This document shows positions 2,745 to 13,438 of a stretch of 13,465 bases of DNA, one piece after another. Source of the DNA: a virus. The position numbers and the translations under genes were made by a program. The notes below the pieces were generated by a model. The model saw only the letters and a program-made list of their open reading frames with translations. It ran no database searches and was not told the origin of the DNA. Each line of letters starts with the position of its first letter. The first letter of the stretch is position 1. The stretch is from the UHGV virus genome UHGV-0042147. The stretch is one strand, 5' to 3'.

Positions 2745-2906
2745 ATGACAAAACGTCGTAAGAAATACCAGGAAAAAGAAGAGATTCGACACCCTGATTC
2801 ACCTGAGGGATTAGTGGTAGCCGCAGCAAATAACAGGGCGTTCGCAGAGCGCCTTGTTGGTGTTTACAGACTAGCCAAAGCAGGAGTGAAACATGGGCGT
2901 CGTTAA
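2745..2906 (+). CDS. Small basic hypothetical protein (53 aa) between cII and O
   Basis: ATG at 2745 with GGAG 5 nt upstream (2736-2739). 53 codons, lysine/arginine-rich N-terminus. The 3' end overlaps the O start by 14 nt. No recognisable family. Confidence 0.35.
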   Translation: MTKRRKKYQEKEEIRHPDSPEGLVVAAANNRAFAERLVGVYRLAKAGVKHGRR

Positions 2907-3811
2907 GTTAGCTGATTACAGGCCTCAACTGGAGGTCGTGGAGCATCGCGTGGCAGAACTCGAAGATGGCTACACTCGGACTGCAAACACACTGTTAGAA
3001 GCCGCCATGCTTTCTGGACTTACTCTACATCAGTTACTGATTGTTATGGCTGTGTGGCGCAAGACATACGGTTACAACAAAAAAATAGATTGGATCGGAA
3101 ACGAACAGTTCGCTGAACTCACTGGCATGGCACCAACCAAATGCTCTACCGCCAAAAACGAGCTTATCAGAATGGGAGTTCTCATTCAGGTGGGGCGTCA
3201 AGTTGGTATGAATACAAACATTTCCGAGTGGAAAACGAAAGTTAACGGATTCGGTAAAACATTTACCAATTCGGTAAAACAAACCTTCACCAAATCGGTA
3301 AAAAGCAATTTACCGAATCAGTCAAACACAAAAGACAATATACAAAAGACAATAAATACAAATACCCCCTTACCCCCCCCCCCNNNNNNNNNNNNNNNNN
3401 NNNNNNNNNNNNNNNNNNNNNNNNNNNNNNNNNNNNNNNNNNNNNNNNNNNNNNNNNNNNNNNNNNNNNNNNNNNNNNNNNNNNNNNNNNNNNNNNNNNN
3501 NNCGCAAGGCAGAACGAATCGACTATGAATCCTTCCTGAACGCCTACAACACCGAAGTCGGTGACAGACTGCCACACGCTGTTGCGGTCAACGAGAAACG
3601 CAAACGTCGCCTGAAGAAAATCATTCCGCAACTGAAAACGCCAAACGTGGACGGTTTCAGAGCGTATGTCAGGGCGTTTGTGCATCAGGCCAAGCCGTTT
3701 TACTTCGGAGACAACGACACTGGCTGGACGGCAGATTTTGATTACCTGCTGAGGGAAGATTCGTTAACGGGAGTACGGGAAGGGAAGTTTGCAGACAGGG
3801 GGATTGCATGA
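2893..3811 (+). CDS. O: Replication initiator O-like protein (iteron-binding N-terminal domain, P22 gene 18-like C-terminal domain), interrupted by an N run
   Basis: N-terminal part (2893-3383) matches the lambda O N-domain pattern (LEDGY.R..N.LLEA...L...Q..I..A..RKTYG.NK..D.I...Q..E.TG......[10 protein letters not shown]). The ori iterons lie inside it. After the N run a 102-codon frame (3503-3811: [39 protein letters not shown]...) ends with TGA 3809-3811, overlapping the helicase ATG at 3808. Frame across the gap cannot be verified. Confidence 0.8.
3249..3318. repeat. Replication origin iterons inside the O gene
   Basis: Direct repeats ATTCGGTAAAAC at 3249-3260 and 3269-3280, a degenerate copy AATCGGTAAAAAG at 3293-3305, and an inverted copy TTTACCGAAT at 3309-3318, at about 20-24 bp spacing. 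Followed by an A/T-rich segment with a 13-bp direct repeat ACAAAAGACAATA (3328-3340, 3342-3354). Same layout as lambda ori. Confidence 0.75.
3384..3502. other. Run of 119 N (unresolved sequence, probable assembly gap) after an 11-C homopolymer
   Basis: N characters at 3384-3502, directly after the C run at 3373-3383. Confidence 0.99.
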
Positions 3812-5184
3812 GACAGGATATCGAAGCGAGCGTTATCGGTGGCTTGCTGATTGGTGGATTAACACCAACCGCCAGCGACGTTCTGGCAACGCTGGAGCCG
3901 GAAGCGTTTTCAATTCCGCTCTACCGGAAAGCCTTCGAAGTTATCCGCAAGCAGGCGAGAAACAGAAACCTAATCGACGCGCTGATGGTTGCCGAGGCGT
4001 GCGGAGAGGAGCATTTCACGTCAATCCTGATGACCAGCAAAAACTGCCCGAGTGCCGCAAACCTGAAGGGATATGCCGGAATGGTCGCGGATAACTATCA
4101 CCGCCGTCTGGTGCTGGAAATCATGGATGAAATGCGTGAACCAATTCAGAGCGGAACCATCGACGCATCGAGTCAGGCGATGGATGAGCTTGTAAAGCGT
4201 CTTTCAGCCATCAGAAAGCCCCGTGACGAGGTTAAACCGGTACGGTTAGGGGAAATCATCACCGACTACACTGACACGCTTGACAGGCGTCTGAGGAACG
4301 GAGAAGAGTCAGATACCCTGAAGACCGGAATCGAAGAACTTGATGCCATCACCGGAGGGATGAACGCGGAAGACCTGGTGATAATCGCTGCTCGTCCTGG
4401 TATGGGGAAAACCGAACTGGCGCTGAAGATTGCCGAAGGCGTTGCAAGCCGCGTTATTCCTGGTTCTGACGTCCGGCGCGGAGTGTTGATTTTCTCGATG
4501 GAAATGAGCGCATTGCAGATTGCAGAGCGAAGCATTGCCAACGCCGGGAGGATGTCGGTTAGCGTACTGCGAAATCCTGCATCGATGGATGACGAAGGCT
4601 GGGCGCGTGTTGCTAACGGCATGAGTCAGCTTGCAGATTTGGATGTATGGGTAGTCGATGCCTCGCGGTTATCGGTAGAAGAAATTCGCTCAATCGCAGA
4701 GCGGCACAAACAGGAAAATCCAAACCTGTCACTCATCATGGCGGATTATCTTGGCCTGATTGAGAAGCCGAAAGCAGACCGCAACGACCTCGCAATTGCT
4801 CACATCTCAGGAAGCCTGAAGGCGATGGCGAAAGACCTGAAAACGCCAGTTATATCCCTAAGTCAGCTTTCGCGCGATGTTGAGAAGCGACCAAATAAAC
4901 GCCCGACAAACGCAGATTTGCGTGATTCAGGAAGCATTGAACAGGACGCAGACTCAATCATCATGCTCTATCGGGAAGCGGTATATGACGAGAACAGTAG
5001 CGCCGCGCCATTTGCTGAAATCATTGTGACGAAAAACCGTTTTGGCTCGCTTGGTACGGTTTACCAGCGGTTCTGCAACGGACACTTTGTTGCATGTGAC
5101 CAGGATGAAGCCAGACAGATTTGCACAGCATCAAATGCACCTGCTGCGCGTGGCAGACGATATGCACAAGGGGCTGACGTATGA
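3808..5184 (+). CDS. Replicative DNA helicase, DnaB family (phage P22 gene 12-like)
   Basis: 458-aa ORF. Walker A ARPGMGKT, Walker B-like [11 protein letters not shown], DnaB C-terminal motifs ([22 protein letters not shown]). Start overlaps the O stop (ATGA). P22 gp12 is also 458 aa. Confidence 0.93.
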
Positions 5185-5264
5185 CCATCTACATCACTGA
5201 GCTGATAGCAGGCCTGCTGGTAATCGCAGGCCTTTTTATTTGGGGGAGGGTAAATCGTGGCTGA
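5181..5264 (+). CDS. Tiny hydrophobic peptide (27 aa), putative
   Basis: ATG 5181 overlaps the helicase stop (ATGA). Encodes [27 protein letters not shown] with one hydrophobic helix. Too short to support without other evidence. Confidence 0.3.
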
Positions 5265-5463
5265 GTTAATTTTCTCTGCATTGAGGATTCTCGGTGCTAT
5301 GTGGATGGTGGCGACGTTCATTGTTGTTGCCAGCAGTTTTGTCCGGTTGGTAGGCGAAGGTAAAGACCTGGTGGGTGTGCTTTTCGGTAGCATTTTCCTG
5401 TGGGTGATTATCGGTGTTATGCCTGTTGTCGTAGCAAAAGTGGCGTGGCGTTTTGTGAGTTGA
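5257..5463 (+). CDS. Small membrane protein (68 aa, two predicted transmembrane helices)
   Basis: GTG start 5257, 7 nt after GGAGG (5245-5249), overlapping the stop of the 27-aa ORF. Two hydrophobic segments (ILGAMWMVATFIVVASSFV and VLFGSIFLWVIIGVMPVVVA). Stop 5461-5463 sits just before the ninB RBS. Confidence 0.45.
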   Translation: MAELIFSALRILGAMWMVATFIVVASSFVRLVGEGKDLVGVLFGSIFLWVIIGVMPVVVAKVAWRFVS

Positions 5464-5470
5464 GGTAACG

Positions 5471-5917
5471 ATGAAGCAAATATACATGCTTCGCAACGAA
5501 GCAATCAGAAATAACGCCATAGACGCAATACTCTCACTTCCCATCGACGACAAGTCACCTCATGAAGTCCACGTTAGAGAACCCAAACGCAGCAAAGCGC
5601 AGAATGACCGTATGTGGCCGATGCTGAACGATGTTTCGCGTCAGGTGCTATGGCATGGTCAACGGCTGGCGCCGGAAGACTGGAAAGACCTGTTCACTGC
5701 CCTGTGGCTTAAGACCAAAAAACTGGAGCAACGAAGTGTGCCTGGTATCGATGGTGGCGTTGTCATGCTTGGCGTGCGTACCAGCAAAATGCGAAAGGCC
5801 AGCATGACTGAGCTTATCGAAATCATGTTCTGGTTCGGCTCAGAGCGCAACGTGCGATGGAGTGATGACTCCCGGCGAGAGTATGAATGGTCACAACGAA
5901 AAGGGAAGGCTGCATGA
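5471..5917 (+). CDS. ninB: NinB (Orf-family recombination mediator)
   Basis: 148 aa. Motifs shared with lambda NinB as remembered: QN..W..L.DVSRQV.WHG, ...W...F.A, C-terminal WSD......EW....G..AA. Confidence 0.9.
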   Translation: MKQIYMLRNEAIRNNAIDAILSLPIDDKSPHEVHVREPKRSKAQNDRMWPMLNDVSRQVLWHGQRLAPEDWKDLFTALWLKTKKLEQRSVPGIDGGVVMLGVRTSKMRKASMTELIEIMFWFGSERNVRWSDDSRREYEWSQRKGKAA

Positions 5918-9678: not shown

Positions 9679-10002
9679 ATGAAGATGCCAGAAAAACATG
9701 ACCTGTTAGCCGCGATTCTCGCGGCAAAGGAACAAGGCATCGGGGCAATCCTTGCGTTTGCAATGGCGTACCTTCGCGGCAGATATAATGGCGGTGCGTT
9801 TACAAAAACAGTAATCGACGCAACGATGTGCGCCATTATCGCCTGGTTCATTCGTGACCTTCTCGACTTCGCTGGACTAAGTAGCAATCTCGCTTATATA
9901 ACGAGCGTGTTCATCGGCTACATCGGTACTGACTCGATTGGTTCGCTTATCAAACGCTTCGCTGCTAAAAAAGCCGGAGTAGAAGATGGTGGAAATCAAT
10001 AA
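9679..10002 (+). CDS. S: Holin S (dual-start S107/S105)
   Basis: 107 aa starting MKM (Met1-Lys2-Met3 dual-start motif), three hydrophobic segments. Matches lambda S. Confidence 0.95.
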
Positions 10003-10462
10003 TCAACGTAAGGCGTTCCTCGATATGCTGGCGTGGTCAGAGGGAACTGATAACGGACGTCAAAAAACCAGAAATCATGGTTATGACGTCATTGTTGGCG
10101 GAGAGCTATTCACTGATTACTCCGATCACCCTCGCAAACTTGTCACGCTAAACCCCAAACTCAAATCAACAGCCGCAGGACGTTACCAGCTTCTTTCCCG
10201 TTGGTGGGATGCCTACCGCAAGCAGCTTGGCCTGAAAGACTTCTCTCCGAAAAGTCAGGACGCTGTGGCATTGCAGCAGATTAAGGAGCGTGGCGCTTTG
10301 CCGATGATTGATCGCGGTGATATCCGTCAGGCAATCGACCGTTGCAGCAATATCTGGGCTTCACTGCCGGGTGCTGGTTATGGCCAGTTCGAGCATAAGG
10401 CTGACAGCCTGATTGCAAAATTCAAAGAAGCAGGCGGAACGGTCAGAGAGGTTGAGGTATGA
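9986..10462 (+). CDS. R: Endolysin R (lytic transglycosylase)
   Basis: 158 aa [22 protein letters not shown]... matches lambda R. Overlaps the S 3' end by 17 nt. Confidence 0.95.
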
Positions 10463-10896
10463 GCAGAGTCACCGCGATTATTTCCGCTCTGGTTATCTGC
10501 ATCATCGTCTGCCTGTCATGGGCTGTTAATCATTACCGTGATAACGCCATCGCCTACAAAGAGCAGCGCGACAAAGCCGCATCCATCATCGCTGACATGC
10601 AGAAGCGTCAACGTGATATAGCAGAACTAGACGCCAGATACACAAAGGAGCTTGCTGATGCTAACGCGACTATCGAAAGTCTCCGTGCTGATGTTTCTGC
10701 TGGGCGTAAGCGCCTGCAAGTCGCCGCCACCTGTGCAAAGTCAACGACCGGAGCCAGCAGCATGGGCGATGGAGAAAGCCCAAGACTTACAGCAGATGCT
10801 GAACTCAATTATTACCGTCTACGAAGCGGAATCGACAGGATAACCGCGCAGGTTAACTACCTGCAGGAGTACATCAGGACTCAGTGCCTGAAATAA
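10459..10896 (+). CDS. Rz: Spanin inner-membrane subunit Rz (i-spanin)
   Basis: 145 aa. N-terminal transmembrane helix ([18 protein letters not shown]), then a coiled-coil-like region. N-terminus matches lambda Rz; middle and C-terminus diverge. ATGA overlap with R. Confidence 0.85.
10658..10843 (+). CDS. Rz1: Spanin outer-membrane lipoprotein Rz1 (o-spanin), embedded in Rz in the +1 frame
   Basis: ATG 10658 with AAGGAG 7 nt upstream (10645-10650). 61 aa with a signal peptide ending in a lipobox-like VSAC, followed by a proline-rich stretch ([12 protein letters not shown]). Lies entirely within Rz. Confidence 0.7.
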
Positions 10897-12293: not shown

Positions 12294-12719
12294 ATGGCGA
12301 CTGAGAAAAAGAACGTCGGTCGCCCTTCGGATTACCTGCCGGAGGTGGCTGATGATATCTGTGCGCTGCTTGCCTCCGGGGAAAGTCTGGTTAAGGTTTG
12401 CAAGCGCCCCGGCATGCCAGCAAAGGCTACTGTATTTCGCTGGCTGTCAGAGCATGACGAATTTAGAGACAAGTACGCGAAGGCAACTGAGGCACGAGCT
12501 GATTCTATTTTCGAAGAGATATTCGAAATTGCTGACAATGCGATTCCAGATGCTGCTGAGGTGGCAAAGGCAAGACTTCGCGTTGATACCCGCAAATGGG
12601 CGCTGGCCCGAATGAATCCACGTAAGTATGGCGACAAGGTAACTAATGAGCTTGTCGGCAAAGACGGCGGCGCAATCCAGATTGAAACATCACCGATGAG
12701 CACTCTATTCGGAAAATGA
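12294..12719 (+). CDS. Terminase small subunit (TerS)
   Basis: 141 aa. N-terminal [26 protein letters not shown]...TVFRWL is the HTH pattern of a common phage small-terminase family. ATGA overlap with the large subunit. Not lambda Nu1. Confidence 0.8.
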
Positions 12720-13438
12720 CCTCGATTAATCCTATCTTTGAACCGTTCATTGAGGCGCATCGCTACAAAGTCGCCAAAGGCGGTCGAGGTAGCGGTAAAT
12801 CATGGGCAATTGCGAGGCTGCTTGTTGAAGCGGCGCGTCGGCAGCCGGTGCGCATCCTCTGTGCTCGTGAACTGCAAAACAGTATCAGTGATTCGGTAAT
12901 CCGGCTGCTTGAAGATACCATCGAGCGTGAAGGGTATTCAGCTGAGTTTGAAATTCAGCGTTCAATGATTCGTCATCTCGGAACGAATGCTGAATTCATG
13001 TTCTACGGCATCAAAAACAACCCGACGAAGATTAAATCGCTCGAAGGTATTGATATCTGCTGGGTGGAAGAAGCGGAAGCGGTAACGAAGGAATCATGGG
13101 ATATCCTGATCCCAACCATCCGCAAGCCATTTTCCGAAATATGGGTGAGCTTCAACCCGAAAAACATCCTCGACGATACCTATCAGCGATTCGTAGTAAA
13201 CCCTCCCGATGATATTTGTCTGCTGACGGTGAACTACACCGACAACCCGCACTTTCCTGAAGTTCTCCGTCTGGAGATGGAAGAGTGTAAACGCAGAAAC
13301 CCGACACTGTATCGTCACATCTGGCTTGGTGAGCCAGTAAGCGCAAGTGATATGGCAATCATCAAACGTGAATGGCTTGAAGCTGCAACTGATGCGCACA
13401 AGCAACTCGGATGGAAAGCGAAGGGTGCGGTTGTTTGA
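12716..13438 (+). CDS. Terminase large subunit, ATPase domain only (240 aa; truncated, split or frameshifted)
   Basis: Walker [10 protein letters not shown], Walker B/catalytic Glu in ICWVEEAEA, coupling motif SFNP. The ORF stops at 13436-13438 after about 240 aa with no nuclease domain. The window ends 27 nt later. Confidence 0.8.

Follow-up and report, generated by a model that had tools for sequence, protein, structure and literature searches.

The region at 5181–5463 of the window (the whole 13,465-nt stretch of the virus genome UHGV-0042147 that was analyzed) most likely marks where, in a lambdoid prophage of the lambda N type, the replication genes meet the nin region, a reading to which we assign a probability of roughly 0.75. 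It would be composed of two parts: a tR2 module in which the ninA frame bridges the terminator (5181–5264), and ORF2, a delayed-early lytic membrane accessory protein (5257–5463). The identification rests on the sequence match to lambda tR2, the families to which the ORFs belong, their conservation, the gene order and a predicted fold. The initiation of lambda ninA and its non-stop consequences, the efficiency of tR2 termination and the dispensability of the nin region were taken from the literature. That ninA acts here as a bridge or couples the genes is our inference, as are the membrane insertion and the timing of ORF2. The pair of micro-ORFs singled out in an earlier note on this DNA is real but ordinary, and the element is already known.

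All features of the junction lie on the plus strand, in the order helicase, tR2 module, ORF2, ninB (sequence and Pfam). Upstream, a nutR site was read directly from the sequence at 2321–2352 (boxA CGCTCTTA, 2321–2328; boxB GCCCTGAAAAAGGGC, 2338–2352), both boxes agreeing with the lambda nutR consensus. nutR is the site where N modifies RNA polymerase, permitting read-through of tR2. The gene for the DnaB-type replicative helicase (3808–5184; Pfam DnaB_C E = 9.5e-78, DnaB E = 4.5e-13; PHROG 19) ends in a TGA (5182–5184) that overlaps the ATG of ORF1 (5181–5183), forming ATGA at 5181–5184. Both ORFs were found where the earlier note had placed them: ORF1 occupies 5181–5264 (27 codons plus TGA) and starts on the helicase stop, as claimed, and ORF2 occupies 5257–5463 (68 codons with a GTG start). 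The initiation signals that had been called plausible are present as well, an SD-like AAGGGG at 5168–5173 within the final helicase codons, 7 nt 5' of the ORF1 ATG, and GGGGGAGGG at 5242–5250, directly 3' of the U-tract and 6 nt 5' of the ORF2 GTG. The ORFs are not nested, however, but tandem with an 8-nt overlap (GTGGCTGA, 5257–5264), and ORF2 does not start on the ORF1 stop (5262–5264); its GTG begins 5 nt before it. The next gene in the chain is ninB (5471–5917; an Orf-family recombination mediator, Pfam NinB E = 1.7e-48), and a GAGG at 5462–5465, 5' of ninB, overlaps the ORF2 stop. The pattern of translational coupling proposed in the note holds, the stop/start geometry being typical of nin regions; ATGA linkage has been described for all lambdoid nin regions (PMC8022706).

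Contrary to the statement that no family is recognizable, ORF1 matches PHROG 5907 along its full length (E = 1.9e-17; residues 1–26 against profile positions 1–26 of 27), and ORF2 matches PHROG 1165 (E = 6.5e-36) over residues 1–68 of 68. ORF1 is no unrecognized gene; it is ninA, the homologue of lambda Orf26, annotated in P22, HK620, Sf6, phage 21, HK630 and SPN9CC. ninA is missing from the RefSeq record of lambda and from PGAP annotation. Pfam, NCBIfam and PADLOC searches gave no match for ORF1, and whole-window Rfam and tRNA scans gave none either, Rfam being without a tR2 model.

Judged from its sequence, the predicted main function of the ORF1 DNA is that of the lambda tR2 terminator. Window positions 5181–5248 are ~95–97% identical to lambda 40568–40635, with near-identity running from the ATGA through the hairpin, U-tract and G-run, and with the hairpin and T-tract identical. 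The terminator (5210–5241), located by a terminator scan and by folding, consists of a perfect 8-bp stem with six GC pairs (AGGCCTGC, 5210–5217; GCAGGCCT, 5226–5233) enclosing an 8-nt loop, and of a U-tract TTTTATTT (5234–5241) directly 3' of the stem. Its position is that of a lambda-type tR2, with the replication genes upstream and the nin genes downstream in an operon that has a nut site; terminator features are annotated at the same position in HK620, P22, Sf6, phage 21, HK75 and mEp235. The role would also be the same as that of lambda tR2, the first nin-region terminator needing N for read-through. Sf6 mutants with nin deletions all retained the terminator (PMC5630979). Lambda tR2 terminates with ~53% efficiency in vitro, and with ~0.9 in vivo if at least 30 bp separate it from the stop codon; here the gap between the helicase stop and the hairpin is 25 nt. 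The earlier note had missed the terminator inside ORF1. A second terminator-like hairpin within ORF2 (5306–5332) is G-U rich, with only four GC pairs and a poor T-run, and was treated as chance.

The module differs from that of lambda mainly in its neighbors. In lambda, tR2/ninA lies between ren and ninB, whereas here the DnaB-type helicase gene precedes it and ORF2 follows. The distance from the ATG to the start of the following gene is 76 nt in both (40568 to 40644 in lambda, 5181 to 5257 in the window). Having ORF2 and not ninB as its neighbor, ninA therefore ends in RVNRG here instead of the RGKS of lambda, and it shares 8 nt with that neighbor where lambda has ATGA. Three further base differences lie just 5' of the hairpin (CTGATAGC here, CTAATAAC in lambda), giving Ala10 in place of the Thr of lambda. 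As here, the module is found directly 3' of the replication helicase gene in P22 (ninA and terminator 'L2'), HK620 (ninA and tR2) and Sf6 (gene 45, tR2 and bsq6), where the annotations superimpose the ORF and the terminator. The P22 module runs straight into ninB and the Sf6 module into gene 46; in HK620 it is followed, as in the window, by an ORF2 homologue, which the HK620 record leaves unannotated. The leader-peptide attenuators of pyrBI and of amino-acid biosynthesis operons similarly have a short translated ORF over an intrinsic terminator, an arrangement in which ribosome position can influence hairpin formation, as has been discussed for tR2 (PMC4824070). Unlike these attenuators, tR2/ninA has neither an alternative antiterminator hairpin nor a regulatory codon run, its read-through being set by N, and in lambda translation changed termination by only ~10%.

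ORF1 itself appears to be translated. It stands above chance because its ATG follows an SD motif in all seven unrelated upstream genes (at −10 to −13 in 7/7, against a background of 0.10). All seven join ninA by stop/start overlap or abutment, and ATGA was present at −30 in 137 of 144 unique hairpin-anchored segments. At the other end, the ninA stop overlaps the start of the next gene in every downstream context seen, as ATGA with ninB in lambda, P22 and phage 21, and by 8 nt with ORF2 and with Sf6 gene 46. Within ninA codons 2–9, 8 of the 18 synonymous alleles that are possible occur, versus 7 of the 54 that are non-synonymous or stops (Fisher p = 0.008); position 8, for example, has five different codons for Leu, and position 5 has three for Ile. 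The lambda NinA start has been described as 'not weak'; it halves the output of an upstream reporter via non-stop RNA, and initiation there lowers tR2 efficiency by only the ~10% given above, and the same paper cites lambda ribosome profiling for the start site (PMC4824070).

If ORF1 were instead no gene, it would be a chance frame running over tR2 and a recombination linker, and function would reside solely in the RNA hairpin, the U-tract and the ribosome-binding site that follows. Much of the peptide would then be explained by the DNA beneath it: the hairpin and T-tract account for 12 of the 27 codons (residues 10–21, the hydrophobic core), and the AGL repeat mirrors the self-palindromic stem arms. 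An identity of 95–97% among phages whose flanks are unrelated also suits an RNA element, or a 'boundary sequence' such as the bsq6 annotated in Sf6, and the omission of ninA by lambda RefSeq and PGAP points the same way. A chance frame does not account, however, for the correctly spaced SD in 7/7 unrelated genes, the universal overlap or abutment, the synonymous excess in codons 2–9 or the published use of the lambda start, and we consider it unlikely, even though the C-terminal tail varies with the following gene and frame-altering variants are occasionally tolerated (insertion of GG, a stop in place of W, and an insertion of HK022 type between ATG and hairpin). The nucleotide conservation of the module is so high that peptide-level selection rests on few substitutions, and the three substitutions seen in the stem are, without exception, both synonymous and wobble-preserving, which leaves them uninformative as to whether the RNA or the peptide is constrained. 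It is more doubtful still that NinA has a function beyond carrying ribosomes across the terminator, as a 26–27-aa single-pass membrane micro-protein. The peptide is hydrophobic, as the earlier note had stated (GRAVY 1.23, with a hydrophobic stretch of ~19 residues), its non-synonymous changes are conservative (I/V/M, T/A/S) alongside the synonymous excess, and its core is invariant in hundreds of phages; but this core coincides exactly with the terminator and can be constant without any peptide function, and it is largely the sequence of hairpin and T-tract that makes the peptide look hydrophobic. In addition, two loci tolerate a mid-helix Leu-to-Gln change (at a loop position), the charged tail is free to vary, the nin5 deletion, which removes ren and ninA–ninI, is described as viable, and the peptide is without a homologue outside the tR2 module.

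ORF2 is, on its predicted fold and conservation, a genuine small two-helix membrane protein. It stands above chance because the same start and stop are kept in three clades at dS 0.9–1.9; all three have 68 aa, and no other frame stays open. Both frames of the pair are conserved in related phages and prophages, which was one of the checks proposed in the earlier note. ORF2 is encoded in 107 phage records and in many prophages of E. coli and Salmonella, and the tR2 module together with ORF2 was found in 536 of 5426 complete E. coli genomes (~10%), Stx2 phages included. Although such small proteins were said to be usually missed, phage depositors and PGAP usually annotate ORF2 as 'hypothetical protein'. 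The family is always 63–68 aa long. Distant relatives (63–66 aa, ~30% identity), which also fall in PHROG 1165, share W16, W49, G53, P56 and W64 and are located immediately or a few small genes after the replication genes in other early operons, again with stop/start overlaps; a search with a single distant member returned two loci only, in Izhakiella capsodis. The ORF2 SD is conserved as GGGGGAGRG (53 module variants). With regard to topology, the claim of two transmembrane helices held up on prediction. The peptide is hydrophobic, also as claimed (GRAVY 1.56), with hydrophobic segments at about residues 11–29 and 41–60, and AlphaFold2 predicted a helical hairpin (H2–33 and H38–67, pLDDT 92.8) whose helices are joined by a short G-K-D(P) turn according to alignments, hydropathy and the model. 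Similarly, the Kapi1 record notes TM helices at 11–25 and 46–59. Pfam, NCBIfam and PADLOC searches gave no match for ORF2 (PADLOC at E ≤ 1), a profile search of solved structures gave noise only (E > 1), and a Foldseek search of the model against BFVD found nothing below E = 1, helical hairpins being usually non-specific in such comparisons.

There is hardly any likelihood that ORF2 is spurious, a non-coding spacer or the antisense of a 147-aa ORF on the minus strand (5061–5504). ORFs of 68 codons are common by chance (the window lists 56 ORFs of at least 60 aa), no domain was matched, and dN/dS inside the closest clade is noisy (0.06 to 0.72). Between clades, however, dN/dS is 0.29–0.39 at the dS given above, indicating moderate purifying selection; the start column and the 68-codon length are constant in three clades despite only ~50% identity over the first 150 nt, and the five residues listed above are common to the distant relatives. 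The antisense ORF was rejected, its frame being closed in other clades. The earlier note had also raised the possibility of a membrane factor that acts from the prophage, either in superinfection exclusion or like a toxin; this would be ORF2, alone or together with ORF1. ORF2 is small with two TM segments, like several exclusion proteins, of which T4 Imm is an example; it lies in an accessory slot beside ren, which is the preceding gene in H-19B and many E. coli genomes, and its family is widespread. Its location argues otherwise. ORF2 is in the PR operon, which is repressed by CI, 3' of nutR and tR2, and would therefore be a delayed-early lytic gene and unlikely as an exclusion or toxin factor in lysogens. 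Tight coupling inside the early lytic operon points to lytic-phase expression, a consensus scan (weak evidence) found no promoter-like site in 4800–5900, and PADLOC, Pfam and NCBIfam offer no match; action from the prophage is thus a reading to which we give little credence. Class II holins or pinholins (S21 68) and T4 Imm are similar to ORF2 in size and have two hydrophobic helices, but there is no sequence or profile similarity between them and ORF2, and ORF2 would be expressed from an early operon. A holin of this class was rejected for ORF2, which lies in the early nin region and not in a lysis cassette; the holin/endolysin/spanin genes are at 9679–10896, the window having its own holin at 9679–10002. 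No significant Pfam or PHROG holin match was obtained (best Pfam E = 0.6, in 1 of 19 family members), and only K61 and R65 are found where a highly charged C-terminal tail would be expected.

Under the preferred reading, a tR2 module bridged by ninA and followed by a lytic membrane protein, PR transcripts would end in the U-tract at 5234–5241 before N acts. ORF2, ninB and the genes up to Q would then not be expressed, and the ORF2 SD (5242–5250) would be absent from the terminated RNA. Ribosomes that had started at the ninA ATG would become non-stop complexes on this RNA, since the stop at 5262 lies beyond its 3' end. With N loaded at nutR, polymerase would read through tR2, and ribosomes finishing the helicase would restart at the overlapping ATGA, translate through the hairpin and stop at 5262–5264, 5 nt past the ORF2 GTG and beside its strong SD. 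The chain of coupled genes of the nin region would thereby be unbroken across the terminator. Because ORF2 has a strong SD of its own, coupling may add little, and no conserved structure was found that makes ORF2 initiation depend on ninA translation. A candidate hairpin sequestering the ORF2 SD was present in the MFE fold of the window, but its z of −0.9 to −1.7 versus shuffled sequences and its absence from clades B and C led us to reject it. ORF2 would be an inner-membrane helical hairpin made only as a delayed-early lytic product, probably as an envelope accessory protein in lytic growth. A more speculative version, which we regard as conceivable though improbable, is that ninA is a selected, dual-coded 'bridge' frame in every lambdoid phage with tR2. 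Ribosomes initiating at the 5' edge of tR2 would melt the hairpin on N-antiterminated RNA and hand over to the first nin gene, here ORF2, and those running off tR2-stopped RNA would tag that transcript, a dead end, for tmRNA-dependent rescue and decay. Independently of this, ORF2 might serve during the lytic phase as a counter-defense or exclusion factor in the ren slot. It is an old observation that lambda–P22 hybrid phages need tmRNA for growth, and the dual-coded bridge, if true, could bear on this need.

The significance of these results is mainly corrective: a hydrophobic micro-ORF that seems to hide a membrane peptide can turn out to be a classic terminator, with its GC-rich hairpin and T-tract, read in translation. 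A modest addition from the comparative data is that the ninA start is kept translatable in seven unrelated gene contexts, which lends support to the published hint of ribosomes entering tR2 and gives a cheap experimental handle on the interplay of translation with intrinsic termination in a natural operon. Like many other small membrane proteins of phages, ORF2 is conserved but has no assigned function; since ~10% of the complete E. coli genomes carry it with the tR2 module, and Stx2 phages are among the carriers, a phenotype for ORF2 would be useful.

A lambdoid early-right operon lies on the + strand of the window, in the order cro, nutR, cII, O-like initiator, DnaB-type helicase, ORF1, ORF2, ninB, Dam methylase, further nin genes, Q, lysis cassette and terminase genes. 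The ATG of ORF1 (5181–5264, +; 27 codons and a terminal TGA) overlaps the TGA of the helicase gene (3808–5184, +) as ATGA, with AAGGGG 7 nt 5' of the ATG. ORF2 (5257–5463, +; 68 codons) begins at a GTG 6 nt past a ribosome-binding site (GGGGGAGGG, 5242–5250), upstream of ninB (5471–5917, +). The earlier note described two nested hydrophobic micro-ORFs; both frames exist and are hydrophobic (GRAVY 1.23 for ORF1, 1.56 for ORF2), but they are arranged in tandem with an 8-nt overlap (GTGGCTGA) and are not nested. Elsewhere in the window, a 301-aa ORF (307–1212, −) adjoins the cI repressor and is similar to the abortive-infection protein BstA (PHROG 6287, E = 6e-133); judged by this similarity, the immunity region would include a defence gene encoded by the prophage. 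Within the O-like replication initiator gene, 119 consecutive N (3384–3502), probably covering the origin iterons, break the ORF call at 2893–3528 and leave 3528–3808 without a long ORF. The terminase large-subunit ORF (12716–13438, +) stops after 240 aa and similarity to Kapi1 ends at 13434; the gene may be truncated, or a prophage or mosaic junction may lie near the window end.

ORF1 contains a perfect 8-bp GC-rich hairpin (5210–5233; AGGCCTGC-N8-GCAGGCCT) with TTTTATTT directly 3' of it. Codons 10–21 are stem, loop, stem and T-tract, and much of the hydrophobicity of the peptide is therefore a by-product of the terminator sequence; the repeated AGL reflects the palindrome that each stem arm forms by itself. 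A search with window 5140–5275 matched 421 phage records. Lambda 40568–40635 is ~95–97% identical to window 5181–5248 and, read directly (...ATGACCATCTACATTACTGAGCTAATAACAGGCCTGCTGGTAATCGCAGGCCTTTTTATTTGGGGGAGAGGGAAGTCATGA..., the final ATG being the ninB start), sits between ren and ninB as the classic tR2, a standard model intrinsic terminator. All sequence-level features that define lambda tR2 and ninA were found in the window module. Curated records superpose an ORF and a terminator at the homologous spot in HK620 (ninA and 'tR2'), P22 (ninA and terminator 'L2; similar to phage lambda'), Sf6 (gene 45, 'similar to phage 21 NinA', with tR2 and 'bsq6 boundary sequence') and phage 21 ('similarity to lambda Orf26' and a terminator); in HK75 and mEp235 the terminator is annotated without an ORF, and ninA is left out of the RefSeq lambda and PGAP annotation. 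The earlier statement that neither frame has a recognised family no longer holds, as both match PHROGs over their full length (ORF1, PHROG 5907, E = 1.9e-17; ORF2, PHROG 1165, E = 6.5e-36). Because of the lambda match, the curated records and the PHROG 5907 match, we conclude on sequence grounds that ORF1 is ninA (lambda Orf26) and the underlying DNA tR2. Upstream of tR2, nutR (boxA 2321–2328, boxB 2338–2352) fits the lambda nutR consensus, so N-type antitermination should carry transcription through tR2 in this phage.

Translation of ninA was examined across 97 loci around ORF2 homologues and phage records, plus ~120 more anchored on the exact hairpin alone. ATGA lies exactly 30 nt 5' of the hairpin in 137 of the 144 unique hairpin-anchored segments; the remaining seven are HK022-type, where ~660 bp inserted at the left stem arm interrupt the module. 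The insert (HK022, locus L096, 754–785 and 1448–1498; also L081 and L018) comprises genes HK022_56 and 57 and parts the ninA ATG from the hairpin, which still lies directly 5' of the ORF2 homologue. At least seven unrelated genes (ren, two helicase types and four others) were found upstream of the module. In all seven contexts the ninA ATG overlaps or directly adjoins the stop of the gene before it, and GGAG, AGGAGG or AAGGGG is present at −10 to −13 (7/7; background rate of such a motif before any ATG in these loci 0.10, probability ~1e-7). Many Stx2a-converting phages carry an extra 89-aa ORF between helicase and module (TL-2011a, L002, 1582–1851), ATGA-joined and with its own SD.

Over ninA codons 2–9, none of which is in the hairpin, 8 of the 18 synonymous alleles that are possible were observed versus 7 of the 54 that are non-synonymous or introduce a stop (Fisher p = 0.008); Leu8 is written with five different codons and Ile5 with three, and the amino-acid changes seen are conservative. 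All three stem substitutions are synonymous and keep pairing via G-U, and are therefore compatible with RNA as well as peptide constraint. The tail past the T-tract differs with the downstream gene. In single loci, GG is inserted, a W codon is changed to a stop, or 45 nt are duplicated internally (IMG/VR locus L045, 1404–1505), the last yielding three stem arms and a 33-aa NinA. In our reading, the ninA frame is translated and kept translatable, and selection most likely acts on ribosome passage across the terminator, not on the peptide. Published lambda work agrees with the comparative evidence for translation: the NinA start on tR2-terminated RNA cut upstream reporter expression by half, because ribosomes there find no stop codon; mutation of the RBS or AUG restored expression, and translation reduced tR2 termination by only about 10% (Li et al., PMC4824070, who cite Kröger and Hobom 1982 and a lambda ribosome-profiling study for the NinA site).

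Before N acts, PR transcripts would terminate in the U-tract, short of the ORF2 ribosome-binding site, so that ORF2 and the genes through Q would be silent. The helicase stop is 25 nt from the hairpin, and termination efficiency in the lambda W-series is ~0.8–0.9 at this distance range (PMC4824070). Ribosomes restarting at the ATGA on terminated RNA would form non-stop complexes. Once N-modified polymerase passes tR2, ribosomes would cross the hairpin and stop 5 nt past the ORF2 GTG. In all downstream contexts seen, the start of the following gene overlaps the ninA stop, as ATGA with ninB (lambda, P22, phage 21) and by 8 nt with ORF2 and Sf6 gene 46. Nin regions form an ATGA-linked gene chain (PMC8022706), which this overlap would keep intact. 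Obligatory coupling through a hairpin sequestering the ORF2 SD was considered; such pairing was no better than in shuffled sequence and was not conserved, and ninA-ORF2 coupling may therefore make only a modest contribution.

ORF2 falls within PHROG 1165 by membership test and is present in 107 phage records (tblastn), including HK022, HK75, HK620, Kapi1, Stx2 phages and Salmonella P22-like phages; large protein collections held only 68-aa 'hypothetical proteins' of Escherichia and Salmonella. Among 5426 complete E. coli genomes, 536 carry the module with ORF2, and the module alone was matched in 1957. Three clades were distinguished: window type, HK620 type (~57% identity) and Salmonella type (~41% identity, ATG start). 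They share the start column and 68 codons, with dS 0.9–1.9 and dN/dS 0.29–0.39 between them, and no other frame is open across all three; both reading frames, ORF1 and ORF2, are conserved. A 147-aa antisense ORF covering both frames (5061–5504, −) is closed in other clades and looks like chance, as does a weak terminator-like hairpin within ORF2 (5306–5332, +). Between window and HK620 types the last 57 nt (5407–5463) are identical and the first 150 nt only ~50% identical; for HK620 versus Salmonella types the pattern is inverted. The clades are mosaic, which points to a recombination joint near codon 50. Individual homologues have a premature stop at codon 15 (H-19B, L091) or a frameshifted 104-aa C-terminus (Salmonella phage 146851_sal5, L093), and that between ninA and ninB in the HK620 GenBank record (L004) is unannotated. 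When 1.84 billion cluster representatives were searched with a profile, only 25 proteins matched, among them 63–66-aa relatives (~30% identity) with W16, W49, G53, P56, W64 and a G-x-D-P turn. These distant relatives, all in PHROG 1165 and with Izhakiella (Enterobacterales) as one host, lie, where context was available, in early operons of other temperate phages, directly after the replication genes or a few small genes past them; those replication genes are O-DnaB or O plus a DnaC-like loader, and stop/start overlaps occur here too.

The two transmembrane helices predicted for ORF2 were recovered in a confident AlphaFold2 helical hairpin (H2–33 and H38–67, pLDDT 92.8) and by DeepTMHMM in the Kapi1 record (11–25 and 46–59); positive charges weakly favour an N-in/C-in topology. 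No similarity was found in Pfam, NCBIfam, PADLOC, PDB or BFVD. A holin was rejected on location and on the lack of a charged tail and of a profile match, and ORF2 does not classify with known defence proteins either. By its position downstream of tR2, ORF2 would be made only after N-dependent read-through, so the exclusion or toxin role in a lysogen proposed earlier is unlikely. ORF2 encodes a genuine accessory protein, small, conserved and predicted to sit in the membrane, and its position points to an envelope-related role during lytic growth; the whole nin region is dispensable in lambda. No new kind of element is present here. What is added is small: comparative evidence for retention of the ninA start in seven unrelated contexts, and a broader distribution and synteny for the ORF2 family.
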